From a virus, in the IMG/VR virus record IMGVR_UViG_3300046673_000114, positions 16,484 to 80,483 of that record: a DNA stretch of 64,000 nucleotides; one strand, 5' to 3'. Position 1 is the first letter of the stretch, and each line of letters starts with the position of its first letter. The position numbers and the translations under genes were made by a program. Below the pieces are notes generated by a model, which saw only the letters and a program-made list of their open reading frames with translations, was not told where the DNA came from and did not search any database. Positions 2-30,199 of this stretch are shown one piece after another.

Positions 2-3000
2 TCTATACAGTTTAATTCCACAAGTAACTGCCTACAAGTTAATAAAGTCGCTTCTACTGGCACGCGTTGGAATACGTGGTTTACAACTACTACACCAGTA
101 ACGGCCGGTAACTGGTATTTTATTCAGATAACGTGGAACGTCGGCACAACTGAAGGAACTGCAAATCCGATTTGTTATATTAATAATGTTAATCAAACGA
201 TTTCTCAGGCGCTAACGAACACTGGAAGTTGGACTACCGATGCAGGGGGTATCATATGTATCGGGAATGAGTACCCCGCTGCAAATCCGAGTCAGTTCTA
301 CGGGACTCTAGTAGTAGCTAGAATTCATAACGTTATCCTTACCTCCGGTGCAGGTAGTCAGCTAGAAGGTAATTATAACGCGAGTAAATGGCGCGCACCT
401 ACAATTAAAAACGCATATGTAAACGTTGATGTGCCGGGTGCCGCTGCTGCACTAATCACACTAAGCAAAATACGAACCGACGCGAAGCTTAACGTTTCAT
501 CTATCGTTTCTAATGCGACAGCAGTTAGTTCCGTTGTTTCTCGCGCAGACGCGAAAATTAACGTTGCCACTATTACGAGTACGGCCGCACCTGTAACGTG
601 TATTCCGGGACTCGGGCATTCTATTACCGTAGACGTACCGGGCGCGGTAGCTGCACCCATCACGCCATCCGCGTTTACTACCGGCATTACCTCGCCGGAA
701 ACCGACTCACTCGCCGCGTCTACAGAAGCGGGAAGTTTAAGTAACGTAACCGTAACCATAGCTGAAGCCGATTCCCTAGCGCCGTCTGAAAACGTTTTAT
801 CGAATACTTCAATAGCCGAAACGGATGCGCTCATAGCGTCAGAGACGCCGAACGTCGCGCTCGAGGCCGATGAGGTTAGTACCCTTACACCAATCGAGGC
901 ACCATCAACCGTAGCTACATTAGCCTCTACCGAAATAGACACACTTATACCAATAGAAGCGTTAACGATTGAAGAAGATATAACGATAGGAGAAACCGAC
1001 GCGCTAAGCGAAGTAGAACAATCGGGAGTCGGTGGTAATTATGAGTACGTTAACGCATCAGAAGACATTATATTACTCAACCTCGAAACGCAAGCGTTAA
1101 GTGCGACCGCAGAAGCAGACGAGACGCAGGTTCTAACACCGGACGAAGAGGTTATAGATGAAGCTGATTTAACTGAAATCGATACGATTATACCCATAGA
1201 AGCGCCAGCAGGCGAGGTAGATGTCGGCGAGACTACTTTAATATCATCAACAACTGAGACTATCGATACCGAGGCGTACTATTCGCCGGTTATACACGAA
1301 ACCGTTGTACTTACGCCGATAGAAGCAACCGGCACGGATAGCGGAATCGTAGCATCGGTAATCGTTAACGAGTTTATTACACTAAAACCTCTTGAATTAA
1401 CCACCCCTCAGATTCCGGTGCTTGTCGCCGAACCGGAAATACTCGTCACTTTCGAAGAGATATTACCCGAGGTTGTTATCGATTATGCCGATAGCGATAC
1501 GCTAGACATAACCGAATCTATAAGCATCGAAGCGAAGTTCTCTCCGTTACAGGGACTCGTAGAAAGTGACGCGCTTAATCCTCTAGAAACGTCAACGTTC
1601 GCGTCGACGCTTAGTATTAATGAATCTACGAAACTCGCGCCGTCTGAAACCGCGCATCTTACACTAGCAGAAGTCGAATATATAACGCATAACGAAGTGA
1701 TATACCTCGACGCCGAGGACTCAACGCTTAACGACCCCGTTGTACTAATACAGACGCCACACGGTCCCGCGACGATAGACGCGCTTGAGGTACAAATTAA
1801 CACTACTGAATCTAACAAGCTTAATTCTATAGAAGTCGCAGATATTAATCCGAATGTCTATCACGCACCACCTCCGCTAGTTGATTATGTCTTAGAAGTT
1901 CGAAAGAAGGACGGTAAAAATTGGGATTTAGTAGGCGTATTAGAAAACCGCGTCGCACCAGAGTTACAATGTGAAGTAGGTGCGGCCGACCAGCTTACCT
2001 TTAACCTCCCACTTTCCGACCCAAAATCGCTTTTATTTAACGCATCTAACACGCGTGGATTAGAGGTATGGTATTACGGTAGAGACTCGAAGCTTAAACA
2101 AGTTTTTACGATTACCGGCGGCGGTAAGACAGAAGGCTATCGAGACTACGGCGGAAACCCAGGTGGAAGCGGTAGCACGCTCGGAACCGGCTCGGGAGAT
2201 TGGCTCTACGTTACCGCGATTGGGCCTGAGGCATATCTAACAATGTATTATGTCGCAGACTACACCGCAACGCAAAAGTATGTTTCTTCGATATTAAACG
2301 CTATTTGTGGAGAAATAATAGATGATGGATATATAACCGCCATTCTCGTTGACCCTGCTCTTAATAAACTAATTGATATTGACTTATCGTGGGAAAACCT
2401 ACAGAGTGCGTTAGGTAACATCATTCAACAAACCGGCGGCTATATGCGCGTCTTAGTAAACTCGAATAACCCGTCGAGTCGAGTACTATATCTCTCAAGT
2501 GAAGTCGCTTCAGACATATTCCCGATTAATCTCGGCGGCGTGACGGCTGATTCGGTGGGCGTTTGCTCGTGGGGGCCAAATAGATTAGACTTATTCGCGC
2601 GAGGCGAAAACTCGAGTATCTATCATAAATATTGGAACGGTACTTCGTGGTCTGGTTGGGCTACTCTTGGCGGAACCACTGATAGCGCGCCTACCGCGTG
2701 CTCGTGGGGGCCGAATAGAATAGACGTTTTCGTTCGCGGAACTGATAATATATTATATCAAAAATATTGGAACGGTGCGTGGTCTACATGGATACCACTC
2801 GGTGGCACGCTCACCTCTGCACCAGCCGCAGCTTCGTGGGGGCTAAATCGCATCGATGTAGTTGCTCGCGGAACGAACAATCAACTATACCACATATACT
2901 GGAACGGTATAAATTGGTCAACGTGGGGTACTCTAGGCGGCGACTGCACGAGCGACCCGGCTATAGTATCGTGGGGTGAAAACAGACTAGACGTCTTCGT

Positions 3001-5047
3001 GCGCGGCACCACTATGGAGTTGTATCATACGCGATGGGACGGTTCAACGTGGTCGACGTGGGAAAACCTCGGCGGTTATCTAACCACCGGCCCGGGCGCT
3101 GCGTCGTGGGGGGAGAATAGAATAGACGTTTTCGCTGGCGGAGAGGATAACGAGCTAGAATGGCAATATTGGGGTGGCGACGTTGGTACTCCAATTCACC
3201 AGCAGGGAATCGCGTTCGACGGGACGTATTATTATTATACAACGGATTCTACGATTTATAAGCTCGACGCAAGTTATAACGTCATTGCGTCTAACGCAAA
3301 CGCGGCCACGCAGTGTGGTGGTGACCACCTCGGCGGTTTAGGCATACATAGCGGAACTATATACCAATTCTGCACAACGGATGAGACGCCGCAAGTTATG
3401 ATGGTTGGATTATTTAATACGAGCGATTTAAGCTTTATAAGAAATGTCGATTTAACGAAAGTCGCCGGGAATCCGCCGACGTGGAGTACTTATAACATCG
3501 GCGGCGTGGGTGTAGACGCTGCGAATAACGAACTTGTAGCGATTCACTTCGGTGACGCCGGTAGTCTGTCAGTCGTGGCCCCAAAGGTGTTTAAATTCAA
3601 CTTGAGCACGTTTGCGTACTTAGGTTACATTACTGGAACGGGCGACTTAGGAATCTATTATCAAGGCATCTGCCCGTATGATGGGGTTTATTATTACACC
3701 GTCGATAATTCGTCAAACGCCAACTCACCTACGCATCTACTCGGCGGCGTGTATATGATGAACCCTGACGGAACGGGCCAGACGATGATAATACCTGCGT
3801 CTGTTTTCAATAATGCGGTATCCGATTTAGCGTGGAGTGGTGAGATAGAATCACTCAGCGTGACGGACGCGGGTATTGTTGTGCTTTGTGGTGGCTATAT
3901 CTTTACCTTCTCTCTTGAACCGCCATATACATTACAAAGCGTCACACCGGGACTACAAGAATTAACGCCTGTGTGGTCTGGATGGGAGTCTTTAGGTGGT
4001 TACGTTCAATCATCACCGGCCGCTTGTAGTTGGGGATATGGAAGAATCGACGTGTTTCTCGAGGGGCCGGATGGTGCAGTCTATCAAATGATATACCAAG
4101 AAGACGTGTGGCAGCTAAAGAAAAAGAATAGCCTAACTAAACACGGACGCGTAGACTGTCCTAAATGCCCGAAGGCCGTGAGAAAAGAAGCAGCCGAGCG
4201 TAAAGAAGCAGCCGGAGACGTAGAACCGCAAAACGTATGGTCTAATTGGAACGCGCTCGACGTAGACCAGATTCAGCCACCGGTCCCGATTATAAAATAC
4301 GATGTATTCCCGAGTATGGGTGACGTGATAAATAACGACTTAGGCGATAGCGCATACGACGGAGTTGCGTTTAATAACGGTTTCACACAACTTCAATGCG
4401 GCGTTGGTGCGTGGGTGTTTAACGCGCCGCAAGACGTCACGTGGACGAATAACATTCAAATTACGAGTGGGCCGGATATTACGGGATTAGCAGATATGAC
4501 CCTTAGTATGTGCGTATATATCGACGCGAATCAAACGGCGGTAAATAACCCGAGGCTATTCTCGAAACAACAGGAGAACGGCGCGTTTGAGCTAATCTAC
4601 GACACGTTTAACCAAGCACTCATACTTAGACGATACACAACAAATAACGATTATGACGAGTGGAGAAGCGCACAGAACTCAGTTCCGATAGGCGATTGGT
4701 ATTATATTCAGTTAATATGGCAAAGTAGCGTTAGCCCGGAAACAGAGAGTCCGCCGGTTATTATCGTTGATAACGAGCAGTTAACACTTGTTAATACAGA
4801 AGCCGGAACGGGATGGTGGTCGCCCGACTACTCCAACAATCTCTATATCGGTAATAGCTACTTATTAGATGGCAGCGGTGATTTCGTTGGCATAATGAGC
4901 TTCTTTAGCCTATATGGCGCGGCTATAGTAGACCCAACAGACGACTTTAACACTAACGCGTGGCGGCGAGACCCCGCCGACGTAGACGCGCAGCTTGTTT
5001 ATAATTTCTTCCCACAAATAGTAACTTCCGAGGTGGCAAGTCAGTGA
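2..5047 (+). CDS. Giant tail hub/adhesin protein, 5' partial: LamG-like domain, acidic repeat shaft, N-terminal part of a Tal/prophage-tail-like hub, PLL-type lectin propeller, inserted propeller, LamG-like domain
   Basis: Frame is open from base 2, in frame with the 431 ORF (GNWYFIQITWN...ICIGN LamG-like motifs). SWGPNRLDLFARG...W.GW..LGG repeats. Hub-like segment VGVLEN...LTFNLPLSDPK...SWENLQSAL. Confidence 0.8.
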   Translation, partial: SIQFNSTSNCLQVNKVASTGTRWNTWFTTTTPVTAGNWYFIQITWNVGTTEGTANPICYINNVNQTISQALTNTGSWTTDAGGIICIGNEYPAANPSQFYGTLVVARIHNVILTSGAGSQLEGNYNASKWRAPTIKNAYVNVDVPGAAAALITLSKIRTDAKLNVSSIVSNATAVSSVVSRADAKINVATITSTAAPVTCIPGLGHSITVDVPGAVAAPITPSAFTTGITSPETDSLAASTEAGSLSNVTVTIAEADSLAPSENVLSNTSIAETDALIASETPNVALEADEVSTLTPIEAPSTVATLASTEIDTLIPIEALTIEEDITIGETDALSEVEQSGVGGNYEYVNASEDIILLNLETQALSATAEADETQVLTPDEEVIDEADLTEIDTIIPIEAPAGEVDVGETTLISSTTETIDTEAYYSPVIHETVVLTPIEATGTDSGIVASVIVNEFITLKPLELTTPQIPVLVAEPEILVTFEEILPEVVIDYADSDTLDITESISIEAKFSPLQGLVESDALNPLETSTFASTLSINESTKLAPSETAHLTLAEVEYITHNEVIYLDAEDSTLNDPVVLIQTPHGPATIDALEVQINTTESNKLNSIEVADINPNVYHAPPPLVDYVLEVRKKDGKNWDLVGVLENRVAPELQCEVGAADQLTFNLPLSDPKSLLFNASNTRGLEVWYYGRDSKLKQVFTITGGGKTEGYRDYGGNPGGSGSTLGTGSGDWLYVTAIGPEAYLTMYYVADYTATQKYVSSILNAICGEIIDDGYITAILVDPALNKLIDIDLSWENLQSALGNIIQQTGGYMRVLVNSNNPSSRVLYLSSEVASDIFPINLGGVTADSVGVCSWGPNRLDLFARGENSSIYHKYWNGTSWSGWATLGGTTDSAPTACSWGPNRIDVFVRGTDNILYQKYWNGAWSTWIPLGGTLTSAPAAASWGLNRIDVVARGTNNQLYHIYWNGINWSTWGTLGGDCTSDPAIVSWGENRLDVFVRGTTMELYHTRWDGSTWSTWENLGGYLTTGPGAASWGENRIDVFAGGEDNELEWQYWGGDVGTPIHQQGIAFDGTYYYYTTDSTIYKLDASYNVIASNANAATQCGGDHLGGLGIHSGTIYQFCTTDETPQVMMVGLFNTSDLSFIRNVDLTKVAGNPPTWSTYNIGGVGVDAANNELVAIHFGDAGSLSVVAPKVFKFNLSTFAYLGYITGTGDLGIYYQGICPYDGVYYYTVDNSSNANSPTHLLGGVYMMNPDGTGQTMIIPASVFNNAVSDLAWSGEIESLSVTDAGIVVLCGGYIFTFSLEPPYTLQSVTPGLQELTPVWSGWESLGGYVQSSPAACSWGYGRIDVFLEGPDGAVYQMIYQEDVWQLKKKNSLTKHGRVDCPKCPKAVRKEAAERKEAAGDVEPQNVWSNWNALDVDQIQPPVPIIKYDVFPSMGDVINNDLGDSAYDGVAFNNGFTQLQCGVGAWVFNAPQDVTWTNNIQITSGPDITGLADMTLSMCVYIDANQTAVNNPRLFSKQQENGAFELIYDTFNQALILRRYTTNNDYDEWRSAQNSVPIGDWYYIQLIWQSSVSPETESPPVIIVDNEQLTLVNTEAGTGWWSPDYSNNLYIGNSYLLDGSGDFVGIMSFFSLYGAAIVDPTDDFNTNAWRRDPADVDAQLVYNFFPQIVTSEVASQ

Positions 5048-7560
5048 GTATAGTAACCGTAGAATCCGATGAGATTGCAGTTTTATTACCGTATGAACAG
5101 ATTCCTTTTTCGAGTATAGAAGCGGACGAAGTGTCTACGCTACTACTCGATGAGGTAACGCTTCCCGAATCGTGGTATCTAGAAGAAGCAGGAGTAAGCG
5201 TCGTTAGCACGCTTGTTCCGAACTTCGGTGCCGCTGGAACGGACTATCACGCTTATGGCGCGCAAAATGACTTTATAACGCTTCCGAGCGGCGCGACAGC
5301 GTGGCAGCTTAGCGGCAATATGGATTATATAGCGATTCCTCGCGGCGTTAGTATTGATAACGTAACGCAAACGACCTTCGAATGGTTGTTCATCCTTAAT
5401 GATTATAGTGGTAACCACGCCGGTAGATTATGGTCAAAACGTCAGACTCACGACGGAAGTTTTGATGTTTACGTAGACGATATAAACGGCTGTATCGTAA
5501 TTCAACGAGGCACGATTCTAAACGAGCTAGACGTGTGGCAGACGCCAAATAACGTAATAGACGTAGGTCAGTGGTGCAACCTTCAGATAACGTGGAACTG
5601 TGATATTTCGGCCGGTGGCGACGCGCCGATAATTATAATAAACGATACACCTCAAGAACTTCTTCACACGAACGTTGCGAATCCTGCTCTATGGGCGGAT
5701 GATAGTAACGACGACGCGTTTATTGGAAATGTTATAGGTGGCGGCTATAATCTAAATGCGACAATAGCGGTATTTAGACATTTTACGACCATAAAAACCC
5801 CGTCGAAGCTTACTACGGACTATCTCGCCGACGTGTGGCGCACGAGTAATAAACAATTAGGCCCGATTACCGTCTCATCGGGACCAAGTAACGACACCGA
5901 CCCGATACTCACTATTGAAAAGAATCTTAGTAACATCTACGCACAGACTGATTTCTCGACGGTCGTCACGCAATGCGAGCCGCGAGGCATAGGACAAAAG
6001 CCAGCAGAGCTTCGATTTAATAATCCTAATTATTATCCTAATGCACAAGCGTTACAGCTCTATACAACCGACACGAGTTGGGCGTATTTTAGACTTCAAA
6101 GTCCTTATGTTTATGCTAACGCTACATATTCTGGACAGCCGTTGCCTAGCACTATGCTCGTAGGAACCGGATTAACTGATTTCTGCAATATTTCGCCTAC
6201 ATTACAAGCCGATAGTACATACCCCGACCCTAACATGGGAGAGTCACCGCCAGCACCTTATGACGGTCAGCCGATTGGACGTGATGACTTTGCTGGACAC
6301 GGACTCGTTTTTAAACTAAACGCTAATACGCGTTTCACCGACGCTAGTTTTTTCTTATATAAAAAACCGGCAGCGACGGCCGGTCAAAAAGCGCATCAGT
6401 TTCTAGTAGGAATTTATTATATACAAAACACCCCCGACGCGGCCCTAAATGAATACGTTCCATCTCAGGGGCCGTTAGTTTGGTATATCGGTGACCTCGA
6501 CCAGATTCAGCCGGATACGTGGGCGTGGTACACATTCCCCTTACAACAAGCAGCGATAAGTCATACACCGTGGGATTGGTACGCTCTAGTGATTTCAGTG
6601 TATCCGACGACCGGCGCGAATTGGGAAGGCGACATTCTTTGGGTCGGTTTTAAGATGACGAATGTAGAACCGACACAAAATACCCCGTATCAGTTTATGT
6701 GGACGTTCGCAGGTAATCCCGCGTACTCTGCCGGAAGTAATGTTAAGAATTGGGCAAGCGCAGCAATGGCCGCGAAAGCACCGGGTGCTATGTCGCGCCC
6801 TGCTTGCGTTCTTCATTCAATAACAACAGATTTAACGAGCGAGTTTCAACAGAGTCTAAACGCGTGTCCGGGCTGGCAGCTTAAAATGCCGATAGCAAAA
6901 TACTCGCCGACTTCGCAATATTGGGCGCATTACCAACAAGCGCCGTGGCTTATCGATTGGGAGGCGTATTCGACAATGGGTAAAGTAGAAGGAACCTATA
7001 AATCAGACACGCTTTCCTCACACGACGCGCTCTTTAATGCCGGTGCAAATTATCTATCAACGGTGTCTAACCCGACTTATACAATTTCGCTAAGTGCATT
7101 AGACTTATACGATTTAGACCCACAGAAGAATTGGGCGGAAGAGCTTCGTCTCGGAACGACGGTTATGGTACTCGACGCCGAGCTTAATATTCAAGAACAA
7201 TGTCTCGTAACGAAAATTACTAAAGATAACCTCGAGCAGCCTCACGACATACAGATAGAATTAAACAGTTTATACGCGACTGCGGCGAGGTCGATGGCGA
7301 ACATAAATCAATCGAGTATTACCTATCCAAAGTATCTAAGCGGCCAAACGGTCTCTGCACCGTATATAATGAGTGGTGCTTGCACTGATACGACCCCGGC
7401 ATCACTCTACTTTGAGATAAAAGAAGGGAGTACGCTTGTTCCGTCGGTTACGATAAGCATAAACCCGACACCATATCAGGTGGCGACGAGCACCGGCGTT
7501 ACCTCTGATACAAGTACCTCTACCGCGTTTAAAATGAAAATAGACGGTGTAGTGGTGTAG
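5044..7560 (+). CDS. Tail protein: LamG-like domain plus middle/C-terminal part of the Tal-like hub
   Basis: GTG start 7 nt after GAGGTGG. Motifs KNLSNIYAQTDFSTVVTQCEPRG and PTYTISLSALDL...LRLGTTVMVLDAELNI...IQIELN resemble siphovirus prophage-tail proteins. Confidence 0.75.
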   Translation: MSIVTVESDEIAVLLPYEQIPFSSIEADEVSTLLLDEVTLPESWYLEEAGVSVVSTLVPNFGAAGTDYHAYGAQNDFITLPSGATAWQLSGNMDYIAIPRGVSIDNVTQTTFEWLFILNDYSGNHAGRLWSKRQTHDGSFDVYVDDINGCIVIQRGTILNELDVWQTPNNVIDVGQWCNLQITWNCDISAGGDAPIIIINDTPQELLHTNVANPALWADDSNDDAFIGNVIGGGYNLNATIAVFRHFTTIKTPSKLTTDYLADVWRTSNKQLGPITVSSGPSNDTDPILTIEKNLSNIYAQTDFSTVVTQCEPRGIGQKPAELRFNNPNYYPNAQALQLYTTDTSWAYFRLQSPYVYANATYSGQPLPSTMLVGTGLTDFCNISPTLQADSTYPDPNMGESPPAPYDGQPIGRDDFAGHGLVFKLNANTRFTDASFFLYKKPAATAGQKAHQFLVGIYYIQNTPDAALNEYVPSQGPLVWYIGDLDQIQPDTWAWYTFPLQQAAISHTPWDWYALVISVYPTTGANWEGDILWVGFKMTNVEPTQNTPYQFMWTFAGNPAYSAGSNVKNWASAAMAAKAPGAMSRPACVLHSITTDLTSEFQQSLNACPGWQLKMPIAKYSPTSQYWAHYQQAPWLIDWEAYSTMGKVEGTYKSDTLSSHDALFNAGANYLSTVSNPTYTISLSALDLYDLDPQKNWAEELRLGTTVMVLDAELNIQEQCLVTKITKDNLEQPHDIQIELNSLYATAARSMANINQSSITYPKYLSGQTVSAPYIMSGACTDTTPASLYFEIKEGSTLVPSVTISINPTPYQVATSTGVTSDTSTSTAFKMKIDGVVV

Positions 7561-7564
7561 AACG

Positions 7565-8572
7565 ATGACAACATACGCAGCGTATCAATTATGTGCAGAA
7601 TCATTCTCAAACTATGCTCAACTTAAAAGTCAGGGATTTATTGACCTCGTTCTAATTGAAAATATAAATAGTAGTTGTAACGCGTGTCCGGTTCCGCAGG
7701 GCTTTATAAACGGATGTACTGCGCAGGGAATGGGTTCGCTCTTAAATAACGGTAATGACGCTGGCGGAGGTGGGGGTGGCGCGAATCAGTCATACTATGC
7801 CGGACTAAAAAAGCAGGGATTAAGTGGGGCCGGTGGTGAGTCTGAAAGTCTAGATGAAGTTAACGCCATTTTAGCAAACACAGATAGTACGTTTGTCTTT
7901 ATGAACTATGGTGGACAGGGAACCGGCGGCCCAACAGGTAATAATAACATATGGGCTTCGCAGGGTGGTCACTGCTCGTATAGTGGTGGTGCAACGATAG
8001 GCTCAGGACAAAAAGTCTCTTCGTTTATAGAACCTTACGCACCGGGACTAATGTCGACTGAAGAGGTAGAAACCGAAGCCGGGTACAATAAAGACGCTGG
8101 TTGTTTTGAGGTTGGGATTTTAATAGTAGATTGGTTCCCCGGTGCTAATTATGCGGGATATGCAGACGCGGTAATATCCTCAGGAGCTACCTTCGGGGGT
8201 TTTCAGTTCTGGTATGTAGAAGGAGACAGCGCGAGCGGAAGTAATAATTGGGGACCCGGAAGTAGCGATATAAATAATATGATGAAACAGTTTCCGCCGA
8301 ATACTAAAAACATAGTGCAGCGCGCCGGTGGGTCGTCACCCGGTGGCGGCGGAGGTGGGGGGTCGGGGCCCGGTAGTAATATTCCGGCAATCACAGGCGG
8401 TAATACGTTCGGCGGTAATAGTGAGGTTGATATTTTACCATATCTAACGCAAAATCATCAGGGTCAGCCAACGCCGGGTGTACACTACGTAGAGCTTAGT
8501 TCGGCAGATGGAATACGCGCACAAGTAACCGCTTCAGTACGCGTACGAACTTGGCAGCCAAAGGAGATGTAG
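7565..8572 (+). CDS. Virion-associated putative glycoside hydrolase (TIM-barrel-like) + Gly linker + tail C-terminal module
   Basis: N-terminal ~255 aa align with 33355..34524; C-terminal 63 aa shared with the next gene. Confidence 0.6.
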   Translation: MTTYAAYQLCAESFSNYAQLKSQGFIDLVLIENINSSCNACPVPQGFINGCTAQGMGSLLNNGNDAGGGGGGANQSYYAGLKKQGLSGAGGESESLDEVNAILANTDSTFVFMNYGGQGTGGPTGNNNIWASQGGHCSYSGGATIGSGQKVSSFIEPYAPGLMSTEEVETEAGYNKDAGCFEVGILIVDWFPGANYAGYADAVISSGATFGGFQFWYVEGDSASGSNNWGPGSSDINNMMKQFPPNTKNIVQRAGGSSPGGGGGGGSGPGSNIPAITGGNTFGGNSEVDILPYLTQNHQGQPTPGVHYVELSSADGIRAQVTASVRVRTWQPKEM

Positions 8573-9576
8573 ATTAGATAATGTCGCAATATATCTACTA
8601 CAAGTTTGATAAAAGTTCGACTACAATCACAAATTATGGTAGTGGTGGTGCTGGTTGGAACGGAGCCGCTGCACGAAATCAGTATGCTACCGACTCAGCA
8701 GGGCATCCGAGGTGGGGGCCGCTAACCGGTAATCAAGATGTGATACACGTTCCCGGCGGTCTTAGCAATCCATATCAGCACACGTGGCAGATTGGATTAA
8801 ATATTCAGCAGTGGTGGCCGGTTAAAGGTATAGACTCTAGTGGCATCCTTTGTGGTAACGACGGAAAGCTCTTTTCTTACGCTAATGACCAGTACTACGC
8901 CTACCTTCACGAAGAAGGGTCAACCGCAAGCGGGTCGCTAGTTGAAACAGGCATACATCATTTTACTGTTGAAATTGCGGACGTCGGTAGTGGTAGTGTT
9001 GAGTTTTGGCTTGGTGTGGGTAGTAGTAAACCCGTTCAAATATCTACTGATGGAGGCGAAGGTGACGAGGGTGGGCGACACTGGTGGGATTTCGACTACA
9101 ACTTACAGTTAAACACTAATTACTATTTTCAGATTGTGATAAACCTTAGTAGCGGCGTGACGGGAAGCGATTATTATATTGGCAATTGTGCGCCGGGGTG
9201 TGCTGATACGATGGTAGTCGGCTTTCCGTGCGGATGTTACATTTACTCGTGGCGTGAAGATAACACAGTTCTTGACCTATCGGGCGGTGGCAACTGGAAA
9301 GACGACGTTGGCTGTTGGGCTGGTGGAACGTGCGGGGGCGCAGCCGGTGGCGGCGGCGGCGGTGGTGGTGGTCCCGGTAGCGTAATTCCAGCAATTACAG
9401 GTGGTAACACGTTCGGGGGTAATAGCGAGATTAACATTCTACCTTATCTAACGCAAAATCATCAGGGTCAGCCAACGCCGGGTATGCACTCTGTCGAGCT
9501 TAGTTCAGCAGATGGAATACGCTCGCAAGTAACCGCTTCGGTGCGCGTACGTGATTGGCAACCTAAGAATATGTGA
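8381..9576 (+). repeat. Duplicated 192-bp coding module (8381-8572 and 9385-9576)
   Basis: 56/63 aa identical (IPAITGGNTFGGNSE..ILPYLTQNHQGQPTPG...WQPK.M), with many synonymous differences. Confidence 0.95.
8581..9576 (+). CDS. Virion adhesin: LamG/concanavalin-like domain + Gly linker + tail C-terminal module
   Basis: YIYYKFD...ITNYGSGG start and LQLNTNYYFQIVI...YYIGN pattern; shared C-terminal 63 aa. Confidence 0.6.
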   Translation: MSQYIYYKFDKSSTTITNYGSGGAGWNGAAARNQYATDSAGHPRWGPLTGNQDVIHVPGGLSNPYQHTWQIGLNIQQWWPVKGIDSSGILCGNDGKLFSYANDQYYAYLHEEGSTASGSLVETGIHHFTVEIADVGSGSVEFWLGVGSSKPVQISTDGGEGDEGGRHWWDFDYNLQLNTNYYFQIVINLSSGVTGSDYYIGNCAPGCADTMVVGFPCGCYIYSWREDNTVLDLSGGGNWKDDVGCWAGGTCGGAAGGGGGGGGGPGSVIPAITGGNTFGGNSEINILPYLTQNHQGQPTPGMHSVELSSADGIRSQVTASVRVRDWQPKNM

Positions 9577-9692
9577 AGGTTATAAAATTGGCTTCAGACA
9601 AGAAAAGAAACGGTAAATCGGCGGGACTTCGTAAAAAGAAACGAAAACGCTCGCGGAATAGTAAACAAGATGACTTCTAAAGGAGAAAAGAA

Positions 9693-9821
9693 ATGGACGC
9701 TCTTACTATCACGTTTATAATAATCTGCGTCGCTGCTGGCGCGGATATTGCTATAGTTGGCACGAGTCTTTTAAGGATAATTCGACTCTTAAAACAGTAT
9801 TTAGCCGCGCAGGAGATATAA
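9693..9821 (+). CDS. Small hydrophobic membrane peptide
   Basis: AGGAG RBS; MDALTITFIIICVAAGADIAIVGTSLL...; stop abuts the next ATG. Confidence 0.55.
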   Translation: MDALTITFIIICVAAGADIAIVGTSLLRIIRLLKQYLAAQEI

Positions 9822-10190
9822 ATGGAAGACGTTGTAAAGTGCATAGACGCAAGACTCGACGAACATCAGGAAAATATCTCTCGTATTAGTACTAGCGTCG
9901 AAGACTGCGAAGTTACCATAGGGAAACAAGACGTTCGTATCGACCATCTCGAAGAGGGACTTAACGACGTGAAAGCGCACCTCGACCTACAAGATGAGAC
10001 GACGGACAACCGCTTTAACGAATTAAGCGATAAGATAGATTCAATCCAAGTTAATAACGTACAAGCAGAGTCAAACACGCGAAACGCATTACTCACTAAG
10101 CAAAACGCGTTTTATGTCTCACTAATCCTAGCGCTTATCTCACTCATCGGCTACTTACTCTATAACTCGATAAACATAGCGCATATCTAA
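9822..10190 (+). CDS. Coiled-coil protein with C-terminal TM helix (holin/XhlA-like)
   Basis: Heptad pattern then FYVSLILALISLIGYLLY; lies after the tail genes. Confidence 0.55.
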   Translation: MEDVVKCIDARLDEHQENISRISTSVEDCEVTIGKQDVRIDHLEEGLNDVKAHLDLQDETTDNRFNELSDKIDSIQVNNVQAESNTRNALLTKQNAFYVSLILALISLIGYLLYNSINIAHI

Positions 10191-10238
10191 ATTGGTATTC
10201 GGTGTTAAATTATAAAATAAAAGGTGGTGATAAAAAAA

Positions 10239-10433
10239 ATGGGTATAAAGTTAAGTTTAGGTGGTTCGCTTCCGAGCACGGCCGAGTGGCTTCTAATTAT
10301 CGGTTTTATAGTCGGCGCACTTGGAATTGCCTCGCAGACGTTTTCATTTAGCGGACAAGACAGCGCAATAATCCTATTTGTGGTCGGCGTTCTGACGTTG
10401 CTCGCGAAGACCATTACCTCTACATCTGCTTAA
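10239..10433 (+). CDS. Two-TM small membrane protein, holin candidate
   Basis: GGTGGTGA RBS; two hydrophobic helices; last gene before a pyrimidine/T tract. Confidence 0.55.
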   Translation: MGIKLSLGGSLPSTAEWLLIIGFIVGALGIASQTFSFSGQDSAIILFVVGVLTLLAKTITSTSA

Positions 10434-10847: not shown

Positions 10848-12055
10848 GTCAATTACCCACGCTAAAGCGATGGGCTTGTATCTCCTTCAACTTTTAGGGA
10901 TACAATAGGCTGATTGACGGCAGCCCTCGAAGCGATGTTCTTTGCCGCATTTATATCGGCGTTTTCAGTGTATCCACACGCAACGCAAACAAACTCGCTC
11001 TGTGTCTTGCGGTTCTTCTTGTCAATGTGTCCACACTCTGAACACTGCTTCGACGTGTTTCGCGGGTCGATTAGATGGACGGGAACGCCGTTGAGTTTCG
11101 CTTTGTAGTCTACGAACCATCTCAACTGGCCGAACGCCCACTTACCGAGTCTACCACGCTGTGCCTTTCTAACCGTTGTCCGAGAGCGTATGTGCGTCAA
11201 GTCCTCTAATACAATCGCTCTCTTTGTGTCTTTGGCTATTCCAACAATAACTTTTGAAATACAATGATTGAGATTCGTCTTAAACTTCCGTTCTTTGCCG
11301 CTCGTCCGCTTCAGATGCCGCTTCGCGCTCTTGGTTCCTTTCGACTGAAGTGCTGACTTTAGCTTCGTGTAGCGCGTTCTAACAGCATCGGCCTTATCGC
11401 CACTGAAGTGCTGACCGTCGCTTGTGGTTGCGATATTGACAATTCCCAAGTCTACACCTAAGTAGCCTTCCGCGTTGTATTCTGTCACCCCTTCAACTTC
11501 CACGACCACGCAGAGATAGAACGTTCCCTTTTGAAGTATCAAGTCGGCTTGTCCTCTGACTCGTCGCTGTTCAAGTTGGGCGTAGTCCCCGATTGAGAAC
11601 GGTATGAGCTTTCGACCGTCGAGAGTCAAGATTGAAACCGAATCGAGAGACTTGAACGATAATATTCTTTGGTCATAGACAACAGCGCTGTGTGGTTTGA
11701 ACGTGTGTAGCTCTTGCCGGTGTCCTTTGCCACGGTATGACTCTGAGACTTTGGCTATCGCTCTGACTGCTAACTGTGCCGATAAACCGTAGGTATCTCG
11801 AATATAACGATAATGCTGCTTTTGAAGCGTCCGTTTACCGAATACTCCTTCTTGATAGGAGACTGACGAAACGTAGTTGCACGCTTCGTTGAACCGTTCC
11901 ATTGTGGTTAAGAGGGCAGCATATTGCTCGTCGGTCGGATTGAGCTTTGCTTTAACGGTTAGCAGCATCATAGAATATATGGCTCTATTCTTAGTTAAGT
12001 TTTGTGTTAGACGCGATTCCTCTCAACGCTAAAGCAGTTGAGCTTCCTCGCTCGA
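10848..12055 (-). mobile_element. IS200/IS605-family element, tnpB only (IS1341-like)
   Basis: Subterminal hairpins CCCACGCTAAAGCGATGGG and CTCAACGCTAAAGCAGTTGAG; right end ...GTAATTGAC; TTTAT 5' of the left end. Confidence 0.85.
10862..11971 (-). CDS. tnpB: RNA-guided endonuclease TnpB
   Basis: RuvC motifs GVDLG, LEDL and NADINAA; zinc ribbon CSECG...CVACG. Confidence 0.95.
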   Translation of the reverse strand: MMLLTVKAKLNPTDEQYAALLTTMERFNEACNYVSSVSYQEGVFGKRTLQKQHYRYIRDTYGLSAQLAVRAIAKVSESYRGKGHRQELHTFKPHSAVVYDQRILSFKSLDSVSILTLDGRKLIPFSIGDYAQLEQRRVRGQADLILQKGTFYLCVVVEVEGVTEYNAEGYLGVDLGIVNIATTSDGQHFSGDKADAVRTRYTKLKSALQSKGTKSAKRHLKRTSGKERKFKTNLNHCISKVIVGIAKDTKRAIVLEDLTHIRSRTTVRKAQRGRLGKWAFGQLRWFVDYKAKLNGVPVHLIDPRNTSKQCSECGHIDKKNRKTQSEFVCVACGYTENADINAAKNIASRAAVNQPIVSLKVEGDTSPSL

Positions 12056-19263: not shown

Positions 19264-20406
19264 ATGAGTTATATCCTAGACCTAGCAAAAAGTTCGTCAC
19301 CAATCATTAAAGACGAGCATATTCTAGAATCGAATTATATTCCAGATACAATCGTCGGTCGACATAAGCAGCAAGAAGAGATGTGGCCGCCACTTTCTCA
19401 TCTTATGAAAGGTCAACCAGCGCATCATTTACTCTTAATGGGGCATAACGGTTCCGGTAAAACGGTTGTCATTCGTAGCGTTCTTCGGGACCTCGAGACG
19501 GTAACCGACTTTCAGACGATATATCTCCCAAGCGTGCGCGACCCTAAGCCTAACTCGGTAATGCGTCGACTTCTAGAAGCATCAGGCGTGGCGCTCCCAC
19601 CGAAAGACGAGTCGGTAGCGAGTCTAATAAATCTTCTTGATAAGCATTTATCCACCATAGATAAGCCCATTATATTCATATTCGACGAAATAGACTTCTT
19701 TATCTCAAAGGATATGTGGACGGTTCTTAATTATATCGTGCGCGAAAGAGATATGGCGACCGTCGTAGGCACGACGAACGACCCGAGGCTTCTAAGTAAG
19801 ATACCGGATAAAAAGTTAATCTCGGCATATAGACCCTCAACCGTAACATTTCCGCCGTATAACACAGACGAACTACGAGAAATACTCGAGTCGAGAGCTG
19901 AGAAAGCGCTTTATGCGAACGTATTAGAAGCTGAGGTTATACCTCGATGTGCTGCGTTGGCGGTTAGGTTAAATAACGGTGATGCTCGTTACGCTATCTC
20001 ATTGCTTTCGAAGGCCGCCGAGATATGTCATACAAACCTTCAAAAGAAAGTTACTAGCGAAGATGTTATACAAGCGGTGCAAGAGCTAGAGAACGAAGAA
20101 TATGATAAAATAGCCTCGTTATTATCGGAGCGGCATAAGAACATTCTACGCATATTAATTATTAAAGATAACATACGACGAGCAGAACTACAGGAAGTCT
20201 ACGAAACTAATAATTCCTATGATGTTATTTCCGATGTGTGGTTCGCGAGAGAGCTAAGAACGTTAGAAGAATTTGGTCTTATAATCCGATGGTCTAAAGG
20301 TAAGGGTCGCGGACTAGGCGTTACGTGGTTTGTTTCGTTACACGAGGACATTGATAAAGAGAAACTTAAAGAAGTTTTATACCGTGATTTAGGTGGCGGG
20401 GCGTGA
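19264..20406 (+). CDS. cdc6: Orc1/Cdc6 replication initiator
   Basis: YIPDTIVGR, Walker A GHNGSGKT, Walker B IFDEID, FPPYNTDEL, GDAR, C-terminal winged helix; TATA box about 30 bp upstream, apparently leaderless. Confidence 0.95.
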   Translation: MSYILDLAKSSSPIIKDEHILESNYIPDTIVGRHKQQEEMWPPLSHLMKGQPAHHLLLMGHNGSGKTVVIRSVLRDLETVTDFQTIYLPSVRDPKPNSVMRRLLEASGVALPPKDESVASLINLLDKHLSTIDKPIIFIFDEIDFFISKDMWTVLNYIVRERDMATVVGTTNDPRLLSKIPDKKLISAYRPSTVTFPPYNTDELREILESRAEKALYANVLEAEVIPRCAALAVRLNNGDARYAISLLSKAAEICHTNLQKKVTSEDVIQAVQELENEEYDKIASLLSERHKNILRILIIKDNIRRAELQEVYETNNSYDVISDVWFARELRTLEEFGLIIRWSKGKGRGLGVTWFVSLHEDIDKEKLKEVLYRDLGGGA

Positions 20407-21632
20407 CTTCTCCCCCAGCTAAAGCAGGGGGCTTCTATCGATTGAACGAACAGAGGCAAGCCCACCTCTGAGTATGTTGATTGCAGCGTTCTCATCGCGG
20501 TCAGCGACATAGCCGCAGTCACACGAATGTATGCGGTCTTTCAGTTCCTTCTTGACTATTTGACCACACCTGCTACATTCCTGAGTAGTATTCTTAGGAT
20601 TCACCAGCACCACTATTGAACCAGCTTCCTCCGCTTTGTTCTGTGTTGCGTTAATGAATTGAGTCCACGCAGCGTCGCCTATCGATTTGGCGAGGTAGTG
20701 ATTCTGCTGCATACCTTTGACGTTCAAATCTTCAAAGGCGATTATGCCGAATCTGTTAACGATTGCACGGCTCAGTTGATGCGCGAAGTCGTTTCGTCTG
20801 TTAGCTATCCGTTCGTGGATTCTTGACACCACCTTTCGGGCTTTCTTCCTTTGTGGTGCGCCTTTCGCTTGAGCTGAGAGTTTACGCTGCGCTTTCGCTA
20901 ACGCTTTTTCATCGTGCCTAAAGAATCGTGGGTTCTCGACTTTCTCACCATTAGACAGCGTGGCAAACGACGTTAGTCCTACGTCTACCCCAACAACAGC
21001 CCCGTCTTTGAATGTTTGGGTCTTAGGTTCGTATTCTGTGGTGAAACAAGCAAACCACTTCCCCATAGAACGCTTGTTTATGTTCAGCCGTTTTATCACA
21101 CCTTCAATCGGGCGATGCAACACTATCTTGACGTTTCCTATCTTTGACAGCATTAAATCATCTGCTTTAAGAGCGAATCCCATTTGTGGGTAGGTGAATG
21201 AATCATAGCGCCCTTTGCCTTTGAACCTCGGATAACCTGCTTCTTTCTCTCCTGCTTTGACACGTCTAAAGAACGCTTTGAAGGCTAAGTCCACACGTTG
21301 AGAGACTTCTTGTAGCACTTGCGAATGAACGCTTGTCAGCTCCGGTCTATCACGCTTCCATATTGGTATCAACTTGTTCGTGTCATATCTGCCAAGTGTC
21401 ACACCCTTTGACTCATATGCGGTCTTTCGCGTGGCTAATACCTCATTATATACCCATCGGCACAACTCTAAGGTTTGATTCATCTTAGTTTCCTGTGCCT
21501 TTGTCGGATAGAGCCGATAGCGATAGACCTTATGCATTGTTTATCTATTGGCATTATTAGCATAAGAATGTTAGGGTTAGGAACGCTCTGTATCCCCACC
21601 TTAAAAGGTTGGGGTTTTATCGCTGCTCACTC
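20403..21632 (-). mobile_element. IS200/IS605-family element, tnpB only, inserted in the last codon of cdc6
   Basis: Right end CCCCTGCTTTAGCTGGGGGAGAAGTCAC; left hairpin CCCCACCTTAAAAGGTTGGGG; TTTAT target motif. Confidence 0.9.
20419..21537 (-). CDS. tnpB: RNA-guided endonuclease TnpB
   Basis: YRYRLYPT, GVDVG, FEDL and DRDENAA. Confidence 0.95.
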   Translation of the reverse strand: MHKVYRYRLYPTKAQETKMNQTLELCRWVYNEVLATRKTAYESKGVTLGRYDTNKLIPIWKRDRPELTSVHSQVLQEVSQRVDLAFKAFFRRVKAGEKEAGYPRFKGKGRYDSFTYPQMGFALKADDLMLSKIGNVKIVLHRPIEGVIKRLNINKRSMGKWFACFTTEYEPKTQTFKDGAVVGVDVGLTSFATLSNGEKVENPRFFRHDEKALAKAQRKLSAQAKGAPQRKKARKVVSRIHERIANRRNDFAHQLSRAIVNRFGIIAFEDLNVKGMQQNHYLAKSIGDAAWTQFINATQNKAEEAGSIVVLVNPKNTTQECSRCGQIVKKELKDRIHSCDCGYVADRDENAAINILRGGLASVRSIDRSPLL

Positions 21633-27325: not shown

Positions 27326-27891
27326 TGGCATACAAAGACCCCGAGAAGAAAAAGGAACGCGATAAAGCGTATCACATAGCGAATAGAGAAAAACGAAACG
27401 CGTATGCTCGGCAATGGCGTGAGAAAAATCGAGAGAAACTTTATATAACTCAAAAAGCGTGGCGAGATTCTCATAGAGAGCACATCTTACAAAATAAAAA
27501 GGAGTATTATCAGAAGAACCGCGAGAAAATTCTAGAACGTGAAAAAGAGCGCTATAACGAGAAGCGGGGTAATCCGAAATATATCGCGAAGCATAGAGAG
27601 TACGGTCGTAAGCATCGTCAAAAAATACGCGATATAGTTATTGCGCACTACGGTGGCGATTCACCCCACTGTATGTGTTGCGGCGAAACAACTCTACAGT
27701 TCTTAACAGTGCATCATATTAATGGAGATGGTGCGGCCCATAGGCGCTCGATTGGTAATTCTGGTTTATATGAGTGGATTATAAAGCATAACTATCCTAC
27801 GGGGTTAGAATTACAATGTTGGAACTGTAATCTAGCAAGTTATCAGTATGGGATATGTCCTCATAAAATAAAAGAAGGCGATAAATTTTGA
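27325..27891 (+). CDS. HNH-type homing endonuclease (family A)
   Basis: Basic helical repeats + CMCCGE...FLTVHH.NGDG..HR...CWNCN...CPH. Confidence 0.85.
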   Translation: MAYKDPEKKKERDKAYHIANREKRNAYARQWREKNREKLYITQKAWRDSHREHILQNKKEYYQKNREKILEREKERYNEKRGNPKYIAKHREYGRKHRQKIRDIVIAHYGGDSPHCMCCGETTLQFLTVHHINGDGAAHRRSIGNSGLYEWIIKHNYPTGLELQCWNCNLASYQYGICPHKIKEGDKF

Positions 27892-28880
27892 AAATATTAT
27901 TTGTATGCAGAAAGCGCGGCCCCTACGGATACTTATCATCGGGGCTTTTTAATTCGGTGAAGTTTCTCGTCGATATGCTCGACGATATGGGGATAGACTC
28001 GAGAATGGTCGACGTGGTTAATAACAACCAAATCGATAAAGAAGTTAAGTCGTACCAGCCGACTCATGTTATAATAGAAGCGCTATGGGTCGTTCCTAAG
28101 AAGTTTAAAGTTCTCATGGAACTTTACCCTAATGTGGAGTGGGTCGTGAGACTTCATTCGGACATACCATTCCTAGCAAACGAGGGTATAGCTTTTGAAT
28201 GGTTATTCGAGTATATAACAAACGGGGTAACAATCGCTTCGAATAAAGAAAGCGTGGCTAAGTTGCTTACGAAGGTTCTTCGAACGGAAGTAAAGTACCT
28301 ACCGAATTATTATCCCGTCACGAATGAACCCTTCGAGCACGGTGCTAAGCACGGCGACACGCTAAACGTGGGTTGTTTCGGCGCGATTCGCCCCCTAAAG
28401 AATCAGCTCGCACAGGCGTTCGCGGCCATTCGATTCGCCGATGAACAAAATAGAAGACTAAGATTCCATATGAACGTCGGGAGGGTCGAGGCGTGCGGCG
28501 AGACAATCGAGAGAAACATACGTGCCGTTTTTAAGAACCTTCCGGGGCATCACGAGCTTATAACTCATAAATGGTACGACCACGACGAATTCACGAAATT
28601 ATGTAAAAAGATGAATGTAGGTATGCAGGTTTCTTTTTCTGAGACCTATAATCTAGTTACTGCTGATTTCGTAAACGTAAATGTGCCAGTGGTGGTTTCT
28701 AGTGAAGTGCGGTGGGTTTCTAAAGAGTGCGTAACGAGTCCGAATAACATAGAGAGCATAGTTAAAACGATGAGTCGAGTATTCAACGATGGTAAACTCG
28801 TTCGCGCGAATCGTGAGTTGCTCATTTGGGAAGACGTAAAAACTAAAACCGCGTGGGCGGCATTTTCACTCGAGGGATAA
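27888..28880 (+). CDS. Glycosyltransferase (GT-B fold)
   Basis: VGCFGAIRPLKN and QVSFSETYNLVTADFV..VPVVVS motifs. Confidence 0.75.
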   Translation: MKILFVCRKRGPYGYLSSGLFNSVKFLVDMLDDMGIDSRMVDVVNNNQIDKEVKSYQPTHVIIEALWVVPKKFKVLMELYPNVEWVVRLHSDIPFLANEGIAFEWLFEYITNGVTIASNKESVAKLLTKVLRTEVKYLPNYYPVTNEPFEHGAKHGDTLNVGCFGAIRPLKNQLAQAFAAIRFADEQNRRLRFHMNVGRVEACGETIERNIRAVFKNLPGHHELITHKWYDHDEFTKLCKKMNVGMQVSFSETYNLVTADFVNVNVPVVVSSEVRWVSKECVTSPNNIESIVKTMSRVFNDGKLVRANRELLIWEDVKTKTAWAAFSLEG

Positions 28881-30199
28881 TGGACGCGTTTAAAGGGCTT
28901 ATTTCTGAAAAATCCGCGAGAATAGCGGTAATTGGATTAGGCTACGTCGGCTTATCTACTGCTGTTGCGTTCGCAGACGCTGGCTTTCAAACGGTCGGCG
29001 TCACGCGCACACAGAGCAAAGTAGACACATTAAACGCCGGGAATAGTTACCTACCCGACGTGCAGCGGGACACTATAATTAGCTCACTCGTCGGTAGCGG
29101 ATTATTAAAGGCAACAACTAATGTAGAAGAAGCAGTTGAATGTAGCGATGTTATTATTATTACGGTTCCTACGCCGCTCACGAAGTCAATGGAACCCGAC
29201 CTAACGGCGATTAAAGATGTAGGTAAACAAATAGGTAAAACATTAGATACGGGGCAGCTTATCATCCTAGAATCGACCGTCTATCCCGGCGTTACCGAAG
29301 ACGTGTTAGCACCACTTCTCGAAGAATCGGGGCTTAAAGCAGGTAAAGATTTCGGATTAGCCTATTGTCCCGAGAGATATAACGTAGGAGATATAGCTCA
29401 TTCTATATCGAATACGCCTCGAATCGTGGGCGGCATAACCGATGAATGGGGTAGCTTAGCGGTAGAGCTGTATCTTCATATTACAAAATACGTGTCTCTC
29501 GTTAAGAACATTAAGACCGCAGAAGCCACGAAGTTAACAGAGAACATTCAACGAGACGTAAACATTGCCTTAATGAACGAACTAGCGGTAGCATATCCAG
29601 AGATGGGGGTTGACATAGAAGACGTCATAGACGCAGCGAGCACGAAATGGAACTTTAACGTTTATAATCCGGGCGCAGGGGTTGGTGGAGAATGTTTACC
29701 AGTTAACGCGTATTATCTCACCTACCGCGCGCAGCAGCTCGGGCATTATCTCCCACTCATACGAACCGCGCGATTAGCGAATGATGCTATGCCTTATCAT
29801 GTCGTTAAACTCACACTCGACGCACTACGACAACATCAGTGTAAGATAGACGATTCGCGCGTAACGGTTCTAGGGGTGTCATACAAACCAAACATTGCAG
29901 ACCGGCGCGGAAGCCCGAGCTATGAAGTTATAGATACGTTAAAGAACCACGGTGTTGAGGTGCGCGTTAGCGACCCGTACCTTCCATATAATGAGATAGA
30001 AGTTGACGTTCTCGACGACACCGATGTAATAATTCTTATGACCGCGCATATGGAATACCTAACGCTCGATTTTAAAGAAATAAAAGAATGGGTAAGAACG
30101 CCGATTATCATCGACGGGCGTCGAAGGCTTAATGGTGAATATCTAAAAAGTTTAGGATTTACGTATAAAGGGGTAGGCGTGGTAAATGGAAGTTATTGA
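28880..30199 (+). CDS. Nucleotide-sugar dehydrogenase (UDP-ManNAc/GlcNAc dehydrogenase family)
   Basis: GLGYVG, TVPTP, LESTVYPG, CPER, GVGGECLP catalytic Cys; ATG coupled to the GT stop. Confidence 0.93.
   Translation: MDAFKGLISEKSARIAVIGLGYVGLSTAVAFADAGFQTVGVTRTQSKVDTLNAGNSYLPDVQRDTIISSLVGSGLLKATTNVEEAVECSDVIIITVPTPLTKSMEPDLTAIKDVGKQIGKTLDTGQLIILESTVYPGVTEDVLAPLLEESGLKAGKDFGLAYCPERYNVGDIAHSISNTPRIVGGITDEWGSLAVELYLHITKYVSLVKNIKTAEATKLTENIQRDVNIALMNELAVAYPEMGVDIEDVIDAASTKWNFNVYNPGAGVGGECLPVNAYYLTYRAQQLGHYLPLIRTARLANDAMPYHVVKLTLDALRQHQCKIDDSRVTVLGVSYKPNIADRRGSPSYEVIDTLKNHGVEVRVSDPYLPYNEIEVDVLDDTDVIILMTAHMEYLTLDFKEIKEWVRTPIIIDGRRRLNGEYLKSLGFTYKGVGVVNGSY

Follow-up and report, generated by a model that had tools for sequence, protein, structure and literature searches.

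A divided tail-tip hub in uncultured peat viruses, with a terminal β-sandwich probably completed by the C-termini of payload proteins

Within the analyzed window, a stretch of 64,000 nt from a viral record of 80.5 kb that represents only about 48% of the genome, four consecutive open reading frames (ORFs) on the + strand were confirmed at 2..5047 (open at its 5' end), 5044..7560, 7565..8572 and 8581..9576. The genes and the parts of their products are:

2..5047, + strand: tail protein P0008, its 3' 1681 codons (ORF call; the full protein has 2390 aa)
1868..2560, + strand: N-terminal part of the hub, domains I-II of a gp27/Tal-type baseplate hub, residues 1332-1562 of P0008 (AF2 model and fold matches)
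5044..7560, + strand: gene of the 838-aa hub C-part protein P0002 (GTG start, shared by the homologues P0006 and P0007)
5806..7305, + strand: hub domains III-IV with a large insertion (Pfam Prophage_tail, PF06605, profile positions 62-250 of 250)
7366..7557, + strand: putative acceptor part of the terminal β-sandwich, approximately residues 775-838 of P0002 (in an alignment, type-B hubs continue from exactly here)
7565..8572, + strand: payload gene 1, P0003, 335 aa (ORF call)
8327..8374, + strand: Gly-rich linker of P0003 (sequence)
8375..8569, + strand: putative donor module copy 1, 65 aa (middle piece at approximately 8375-8503, last-strand piece at approximately 8504-8569)
8581..9576, + strand: payload gene 2, P0004, 331 aa (ORF call)
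9322..9378, + strand: Gly-rich linker of P0004 (sequence)
9379..9573, + strand: putative donor module copy 2, 65 aa (match to copy 1)

The gene for P0008 starts 2125 nt upstream of the window, and its product comprises LamG-like and Ig-like parts, hub domains I-II and DUF346 propeller repeats. The GTG start of the P0002 gene has a 4-nt overlap with the end of the upstream ORF (stop at 5045-5047) and is preceded by GAGGTGG. P0004 starts with ATG, with AGGAG approximately 14 nt upstream of 8581, and upstream of 7565 there is a weak GGTG alone. The original observation of a ribosome binding site for each ORF therefore holds for 5044 and 8581, and only weakly for 7565.

The hub is divided between two proteins, with domains I-II lying within the 2390-aa protein and domains III-IV within the 838-aa protein. 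For the N-terminal part no Pfam match was found at the sequence level; an AF2 model of P0008 residues 1332-1562 (pLDDT 74.5) matched hub proteins with Foldseek (E 4.6e-6), and was aligned by VIA-align with NF5 Tal (residues 3-181, Z 12.1, rmsd 3.4, 166 aligned), 80alpha Tal (2-180, Z 11.0) and Listeria gp18 (3gs9; 3-180 of 326, Z 9.6). P0002 scored 54.4 bits against Pfam Prophage_tail, above the gathering cut-off of 31.3, and matched PHROG 4311 (E 2.8e-13, profile positions 231-426 only); the relatives P0021, P0023 and the hub of L026 likewise match Prophage_tail. A PDB sequence search with P0002 gave nothing usable. Hub-like segments had been read in order across the ORFs, and this order was recovered, with the N-terminal part at 1868-2560 followed by the middle that matches Prophage_tail. 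The view of a hub spread over four genes is right in that the hub is split, but the locus is really one of two hub genes and two alternative donors.

In its domains this hub resembles the siphophage Tal/gp27 hub (PF06605; Listeria gp18 3gs9, 80alpha Tal and NF5 Tal), I-II by fold and III-IV by Pfam, and as in those phages its genes lie downstream of the genes for the tape measure protein (TMP; PhageMin_Tail) and Dit (SPP1_Dit and Sipho_tail, weak matches), here followed by six intervening genes. It differs from them in being carried on two polypeptides, its halves separated by about 1100 aa of propeller and LamG-like sequence, and in having an incomplete terminal domain. A precedent for a hub split over two proteins is found in phage lambda, where the hub domains are divided between gpL and gpJ and the HDII-insertion is built from the C-terminal end of gpL and the N-terminal end of gpJ (PMC10721106). 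A lambda-type split places HDI on a small protein of its own that bears an Fe-S domain, and the remaining hub on the central fibre protein. The N/C break in the window lies after domain II, at a different domain boundary from that in lambda. Furthermore, lambda has an invariant split that links two core proteins of the tip, whereas the break in the terminal domain moves among relatives of the window and would tether interchangeable accessory proteins.

The product of 5044..7560 ends in FKMKIDGVVV directly before the stop, as had been reported, and its translation confirms this. The C-terminal module common to both downstream proteins, behind a Gly-rich linker, was recovered as well, with 57 of 65 residues identical (BLASTP E 2e-36; 56 of 63 in the first reading). 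At the DNA level the identity between the two copies is 83%, and third codon positions account for 22 of the 34 differences, so that both are under purifying selection. Motifs of the module are DI..YLT..H.GQPTPG.H.V in the middle piece and V.VR..QP in the last strand. In a search of 1.84 billion representative proteins the module occurred only at the extreme C-terminus of small, unrelated proteins and in P0019, where it runs straight on from a P0002-like hub. A homologue search with P0019 did not find a full-length fused form, which is weak evidence.

P0003 is a paralogue of a free protein encoded at 33355-34524. Pfam and PHROGs searches gave no family for P0003 or P0004, and PDB searches with profiles of both payload families yielded nothing usable. 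As leads only, the body of P0003 may be TIM-barrel or glycosidase-like and that of P0004 LamG/ConA-like, the latter from the structural neighbours of one predicted model. A survey of relatives for other payloads on the same module, as had been suggested, did find such payloads, for instance a papain-like peptidase. It is probable that the payloads serve to bind or degrade the cell surface.

Related loci were retrieved with the module alignment alone; P0002 alone as the query gave none in viral contigs. The 28 loci (3 viral and 25 metagenomic) come from peat and Arctic-soil metagenomes, and their contigs may stem from few sampling campaigns and similar habitats. In type A, the type of the window, the hub stops at IDG..V and the donors consist of the middle piece and the last strand (approximately 63 aa). 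In type B the hub continues through the YLT..H.GQPTPG.H motif and ends 8-9 residues past PTPG.H, and one to three payloads carry the last strand only. Type C (L014, L013 and L033) is the closest relative, with a hub that is 57% identical and stops as in type A; its payload 1 ends in HYIEVLPLE and has the middle piece only, and its payloads 2 and 3 have the last strand only. The last-strand donor piece measures 14-18 aa, and the middle piece of payload 1 in L014 about 35 aa. The N- and C-parts of the hub are on separate genes in every relative but L007, and in none of the 28 loci was the whole terminal β-sandwich found in one protein.

These loci support the proposal that the terminal sandwich of the hub is cut and that the missing part is carried by either downstream protein, as the segment stands at the hub end or at the payload end in relatives, with two break points and a three-piece version. 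Within orthologous payload families (P0003-like, LamG-like and papain-like) the amount of the domain varies between genomes. The donor endings track the genome and not the family of the payload: the window and L014 have WQPK.M, type B has YQPG.E and L007 has YQPKT., which is the pattern expected if the donors of a genome share a partner.

Assembly errors at the stops had been named as a possible flaw, and they, or recent pseudogenizing mutations, would imply that the hub is really one longer gene. We found no point in support of this and consider it extremely improbable: the region 6900-9700 of the window is identical, with zero differences and zero gaps, in contigs from four runs, two of DNA and two of metatranscriptomes, so that there are no indels at the stops; P0006 (57% identity) has the same stop; the break points recur in many independent contigs; and purifying selection acts on both module copies. 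Alternatively, recoding by a frameshift or read-through at the hub stop could join hub and payload covalently, making the payload a loop insertion in one polypeptide. The frame of payload 1 is indeed open a few nucleotides before the hub stop in the window and in L006, but the offset between the hub and payload-1 frames varies (+1 in the window, L006 and L007; +2 in L014 and L026), and second and third donors have their own starts beyond the reach of one shift, as in P0004 with its AGGAG and ATG. With no slippery site seen either, recoding is very improbable.

Among annotated phage proteins, the closest relative of the hub C-part is gp21 of Enterococcus phage phiEf11 ("minor head protein", PHROG 4311), which appears, on weak sequence similarity, to have the pieces of the domain contiguous and in the same order (VDIVVDG, NIVNYL, GNHTIKI and then the last strand). 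With hhalign, phiEf11 gp21 matched the hub part plus the first strands (E 4.3e-6) and the middle piece (E 1.2e-4), and the PHROG 4311 profile matched the type-B hub end at positions 579-628 of 651 (E 6.2e-4). Other comparisons gave weak values, with the module at profile positions 598-638 (E 0.25), 9.5 bits in a local hmmsearch for the link to a contiguous ancestor, and a probability of 9% for the trimmed module in hhalign against phiEf11 gp21; pairwise BLASTP of the module with the C-terminal end of phiEf11 gp21 gave no relevant alignment. phiEf11 gp21 is a single chain, one loop of which holds a G/S/H-rich insert of about 180 aa, whereas in the window the chain is broken and the distal pieces reside on payload proteins.

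Structural modeling with AF2 predicts the type-B hub end to be a six-strand sandwich (pLDDT about 80 over residues 60-140) with a weak resemblance to galactose-binding-like jelly rolls (Foldseek best E 0.035; GH2, CE2 and APC10 sandwiches with probabilities of 0.96-1.0), and VIA-align of the terminal-domain model gave weak matches (Z at most 6.4). In complex prediction, P0002 residues 745-838 with the module scored 0.58 and the best of three controls 0.00, a result classed as weak support. Of 80 solved complexes 58 attained the mark, as did 2 of 110 mismatched pairs; with scores of 0.60 or less it was attained by only 7 of those 80 complexes and by both passing mismatches. The runs agreed in at least 84% of contacts, with a partner pLDDT of at least 69. 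The score for the proposed non-covalent completion lies in the weak band.

This weak complex prediction would also suit a different role, in which the module or short tail at the C-terminus serves as a tag for docking or packaging and binds elsewhere on the virion or host, its likeness to type-B hub ends being that of a mobile small domain. The module always stands behind flexible linkers, as docking tags do. We regard such a tag as unlikely, since neither a last strand nor a middle piece alone, at the lengths given above, can form a domain of its own, type-B hubs run on into this very segment, and the donors begin at precisely the point where the hubs end. Moreover, the hub end was modeled with a pLDDT of 61-71 when paired with the module, against 34-36 when paired with unrelated partners.

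The best reading, to which we assign a probability of roughly 0.7, is strand or fragment complementation of the terminal domain of the hub. The tail-tip hub would be assembled from several polypeptides, with about the first half of a small, jelly-roll-like β-sandwich forming the end of the 838-aa protein and the other half, about 63 aa, supplied by the C-terminal ends of two payloads on flexible Gly-rich linkers. Either payload could complete the sandwich non-covalently and so become tethered to one of three hub subunits. The presence of two or three donors per acceptor type counts against this explanation on grounds of stoichiometry. The 80.5-kb record yielded no second acceptor; another could exist, given the fraction of the genome that the record covers.

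The number and position of the breaks may set the number of payloads per hub subunit, one in the window type and type B and two, chained, in type C. We slightly favor a broader view, that the multi-chain split β-sandwich is a modular tail-tip socket whose break points moved in evolution, one break allowing one payload and two breaks a daisy chain of hub, payload 1 and payload 2 or 3. Donor-strand complementation is known from chaperone-usher pili, and SpyTag/SpyCatcher-type systems are engineered split domains. By analogy, a β-sandwich that lacks strands would here receive them in trans, from a short segment of a second protein. The window differs from chaperone-usher pili, with their Ig-like pilin fold and N-terminal donor, in its fold, its C-terminal donors and its phage-tail context, and nothing points to a chaperone, an usher or isopeptide chemistry. 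We also weighed a disulfide or isopeptide lock and rejected it: in many last-strand-only donors a Cys directly precedes the strand, but the hub ends have no conserved partner Cys. An invertible or shufflon-type switch was also set aside, as the copies of the module form direct repeats, each at the 3' end of a complete gene.

The anchoring of accessory receptor-binding or wall-degrading proteins at the tail tip decides host range and offers a handle for phage engineering. To our knowledge, the tail-tip anchors on record are either conserved adaptor domains at the N-terminus or entire docking domains. If complementation is correct, the role of anchor would fall to the part that the hub's terminal domain lacks, given by the C-terminal end of the payload; this would be a previously undescribed way to arm tail tips with interchangeable enzymes and lectins, and a ready-made natural split-tag pair. 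The three natural versions, cut at different loops, would form a natural experiment on the tolerance of split domains, and the split-hub precedent of lambda gpL/gpJ would extend to an uncultured clade of peat viruses. Complementation predicts that the payloads are virion proteins, that in type B the tail of 14-18 aa suffices for tethering, and that in type C the binding of payloads 2 and 3 requires payload 1.

With regard to the host, the sole hit in a search of genome contigs was the type-C virus, on a contig of 95 kb that had been binned with an acidobacterial MAG. This contig is viral throughout (capsid, portal, GC 0.44-0.50), and the MAG was set aside as host evidence; the Orc1/Cdc6 of the window, used as a query, was not found in it. 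The peat viruses of this clade have an archaeal-type replication initiator, and they may infect archaea.

The stretch lies downstream of tape measure and Dit-like genes and opens within a large ORF, an order from which it is identified as the distal tail module of a siphovirus-like virus. The virus record is 80.5 kb long, with a CheckV completeness estimate of 48%, and the window corresponds to its bases 16484-80483. The Dit-like gene is followed by five small ORFs and an 821-aa protein, and then by the 2390-aa ORF of tail protein P0008, whose 3' part opens the window. The 821-aa protein (L004 3891-6356, upstream of the window) matches no Pfam family; it contains propeller-like repeats and then about 20 tandem copies of a ~16-aa motif (..ADA..PTLTPISS.AA..), ahead of the giant tail protein. 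All four ORFs over which the original prediction had divided a tail hub are present, namely the 3' part of P0008 and the last three genes listed here.

Tail genes upstream of and in the window
upstream of window: tape measure gene, 1158 aa, PhageMin_Tail match
upstream of window: Dit-like gene, 478 aa, weak matches to SPP1_Dit and Sipho_tail
5044-7560: P0002, hub C-part; Pfam Prophage_tail positions 62-250 of 250, 54.4 bits; PHROG 4311 match
7565-8572: P0003, payload 1, with C-terminal module
8581-9576: P0004, payload 2, with C-terminal module

P0002 ends in ...FKMKIDGVVV*. P0003 and P0004 have unrelated bodies and a common C-terminal module (57 of 65 residues identical, E 2e-36), preceded in both by a Gly-rich linker. 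At the DNA level the two copies share 83% identity; of their 34 differences, 22 are at third codon positions. Over positions 6900-9700 the window is matched without substitutions or indels by contigs of two metatranscriptome runs and of two DNA runs (the DNA runs possibly including the source sample), so that an origin of the stops in sequence errors is less consistent with the data. A single 3556-nt RNA-library contig, in itself no proof of transcription, covers both the hub stop and the P0003 start. Logan contigs from all four runs end at the module copies (8450-8470 and 9454-9474); this repeat thus fragments assemblies, and short contigs of the clade may under-report gene neighborhoods.

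The N-terminal half of the hub was located in P0008. Residues 1332-1562 (window 1868-2560), modeled from an alignment of eight relatives (pLDDT 74.5), resemble baseplate hubs and Tal proteins (Foldseek E 4.6e-6), and VIA-align superposed them on residues 3-181 of phage NF5 Tal (Z 12.1), 2-180 of 80alpha Tal (Z 11.0) and 3-180 of the 326 residues of Listeria gp18 (Z 9.6). From these matches to hub and Tal N-termini the modeled segment is assigned to hub domains I-II, and together with domains III-IV of P0002, identified by Pfam, it tiles a single hub, as the original prediction had proposed. The arrangement of the N-part varies: it is a free-standing gene of ~233 aa immediately upstream of the C-part gene in two related loci (L026, L031), is fused to other domains in two others (L006, L018), and in L007 shares a single 3045-aa chain with the C-part, ~1000 residues ahead of it. 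Evidently, covalent joining of the hub halves is not required. Such a two-protein hub is already known: in phage lambda, a structural precedent, gpL and gpJ share the hub, and both chains contribute to one of its domains (PMC10721106).

A full HMMER search with the module against 1.84 billion representative proteins gave nine hits, most of them small proteins that carry it at their very C-terminus, including a papain-like protein and homologues of P0003 and P0004. Another, P0019, is a P0002-like hub fragment in which ...IIIDG continues directly into ...DILPYVTKNHQGQPTPGWHYIKV. With the module alignment as query, viral and metagenome contigs yielded 28 loci, none of which has the whole terminal domain in one chain, and which differ in where this domain is cut. 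In type A (the window, L018 and donor-only contigs L009-L012 and L015-L019) the hub ends in ...IDG..V* and the following one or two genes carry the full module at their C-end. In type B (L005-L007 and L020-L032) the hub passes through the YLT..H.GQPTPG.H motif and ends 8-9 residues beyond it; the following one to three genes end in the last strand only (~15 aa, ...C.V.VR.YQPG.E), preceded by a Pro/Thr linker. L014, L013 and L033, the closest relative (hub 57% identical), make up type C; here the hub has the type A stop, payload 1 ends in ...HYIEVLPLE* and hence carries the middle piece only, and payloads 2 and 3 contribute the last strand alone. Most last-strand-only donors (L005-L007, L013, L014, L024-L032) have a Cys 1-8 residues ahead of the strand (e.g., NLCVRVR, RCNLALAVNV), which the full-module donors of the window lack; the hub ends showed no conserved Cys that could be its partner.

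In the hub-end alignment, type A hubs stop exactly where type B hubs continue, and in both payload family alignments the portion borne by orthologous payloads (full module, middle piece or last strand) depends on the genome. Donor endings (WQPK.M in the window and L014, YQPG.E in type B, YQPKT. in L007) are closer within one genome than to those of orthologues in other genomes, as expected if donors co-evolve with one acceptor. In the hub tree, the window and L014 (type C) are sisters (support 100/100) and the short-hub type B loci form a single clade (100/99) that excludes L007, also type B; by this placement the break type has changed more than once. The comparative evidence thus favors the interpretation originally put forward, that the payloads would complete a cut hub domain. 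Two alternatives, that the module is a separate docking tag or that recoding yields hub-payload fusion proteins, fit the data less well.

Modeled with AF2, the last 140 residues of a type B hub form a six-strand sandwich (pLDDT ~80 over residues 60-140); on this model the type A cut is predicted to lie beyond the third strand and the type B cut ahead of the last, missing strand. Its best neighbors are galactose-binding-like jelly rolls (GH2 N-domains, CE2, APC10), all weak (Foldseek E ≥0.035, VIA-align Z ≤6.4). Among annotated phage proteins the nearest is phiEf11 gp21, encoded downstream of the phiEf11 TMP and Dit genes, which has the terminal-domain motifs in the same order as the window pieces, but all in one chain. 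With hhalign, the hub-end alignment maps to residues 298-409 of gp21 (E 4.3e-6), and the match of the module covers residues 618-651 (E 1.2e-4); the type B hub end aligns to positions 579-628 of 651 in PHROG 4311 (E 6.2e-4). A local hmmsearch gave 9.5 bits for the gp21 link and BLASTP found no match. These collinear matches, each weak singly, fit the contiguous domain that the original prediction describes for Firmicutes phages. Residues ~410-590 of gp21 (L039, phiEf11, 2811-4826) form a ~180-aa repeat insert rich in Gly/Ser and in His (H.H...VPSHSH-type) inside this domain, in the same loop that bears a short insert in the hub of the window; this loop evidently tolerates large insertions.

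For the interface between P0002 residues 745-838 and the module, complex prediction returned "weak support", with a score of 0.58 (best of three controls 0.00). Of 80 solved complexes 58 reached the mark, as did 2 of 110 mismatched pairs; at scores ≤0.60 it was attained by just 7 of the 80, along with both passing mismatches. Contact agreement between runs was at least 84% and partner pLDDT at least 69; hub-end pLDDT was 61-71 with the module versus 34-36 with unrelated partners.

We propose that hub end and donor segment would co-fold into one sandwich, tethering the payload to the tail tip via its flexible linker. The hub trimer would offer three identical sites, for which P0003 and P0004 of the window would compete or which they would share; in the type C arrangement, the first payload would fill most of the domain and the remaining slot would take the last strand from either payload 2 or payload 3. 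In the literature searched, we found no description of a terminal domain with movable breaks as a payload socket.

The P0003 body had no Pfam, PHROG or PDB sequence match; its Atlas neighbors are TIM barrels and GH18-like proteins, at weak similarity (feature score 0.88; TM 0.54, model pLDDT 0.40), and the body of a free, non-tail protein at 33355-34524 is a paralogue (27% identical, E 5e-18). Structural neighbors of the P0004 body are Laminin_G_3 proteins (TM 0.60), and its N-terminus is similar to two P0008 segments. The survey of relatives for other payloads revealed a third recurrent family, a papain-like peptidase. The short-hub type B clade has the fixed order P0003-like, papain-like, LamG-like, membrane protein, giving three donors for a presumably trimeric hub. 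After the last payload gene there is always, in the window and relatives, a gene for a small protein with a hydrophobic tail (segment in relatives ...FLFILVFISYSFHVFGGLP), which may be a holin-like or tail-associated membrane protein.

Further genes
9822-10433 (also L006 13888-14409 and L026 9156-9830): small protein with C-terminal hydrophobic segment
55121-56368: Peptidase_C1 gene, free (non-tail) version of the papain-like payload family
19264-20406: Orc1/Cdc6-type AAA+ protein, Cdc6_lid E 2.3e-19
10862-11971 (-), 20419-21537 (-), 62888-63988 (+): three TnpB/IS605 OrfB-type genes, OrfB_IS605 and Cas12f1-like TNB domain

The window sequence was found again in many peat metagenomes. The Orc1/Cdc6-type gene hints at an archaeal host; against this, the 95-kb contig of the closest relative (L033), which is viral throughout, was binned in an acidobacterial MAG. 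One relative's contig also carries a TnpB/IS605 OrfB-type gene (L034 2445-3512). At 27888-30199, a GT4-like glycosyltransferase (weak match) adjoins a complete UDP-glucose/GDP-mannose dehydrogenase, a virus-borne sugar-metabolism pair.
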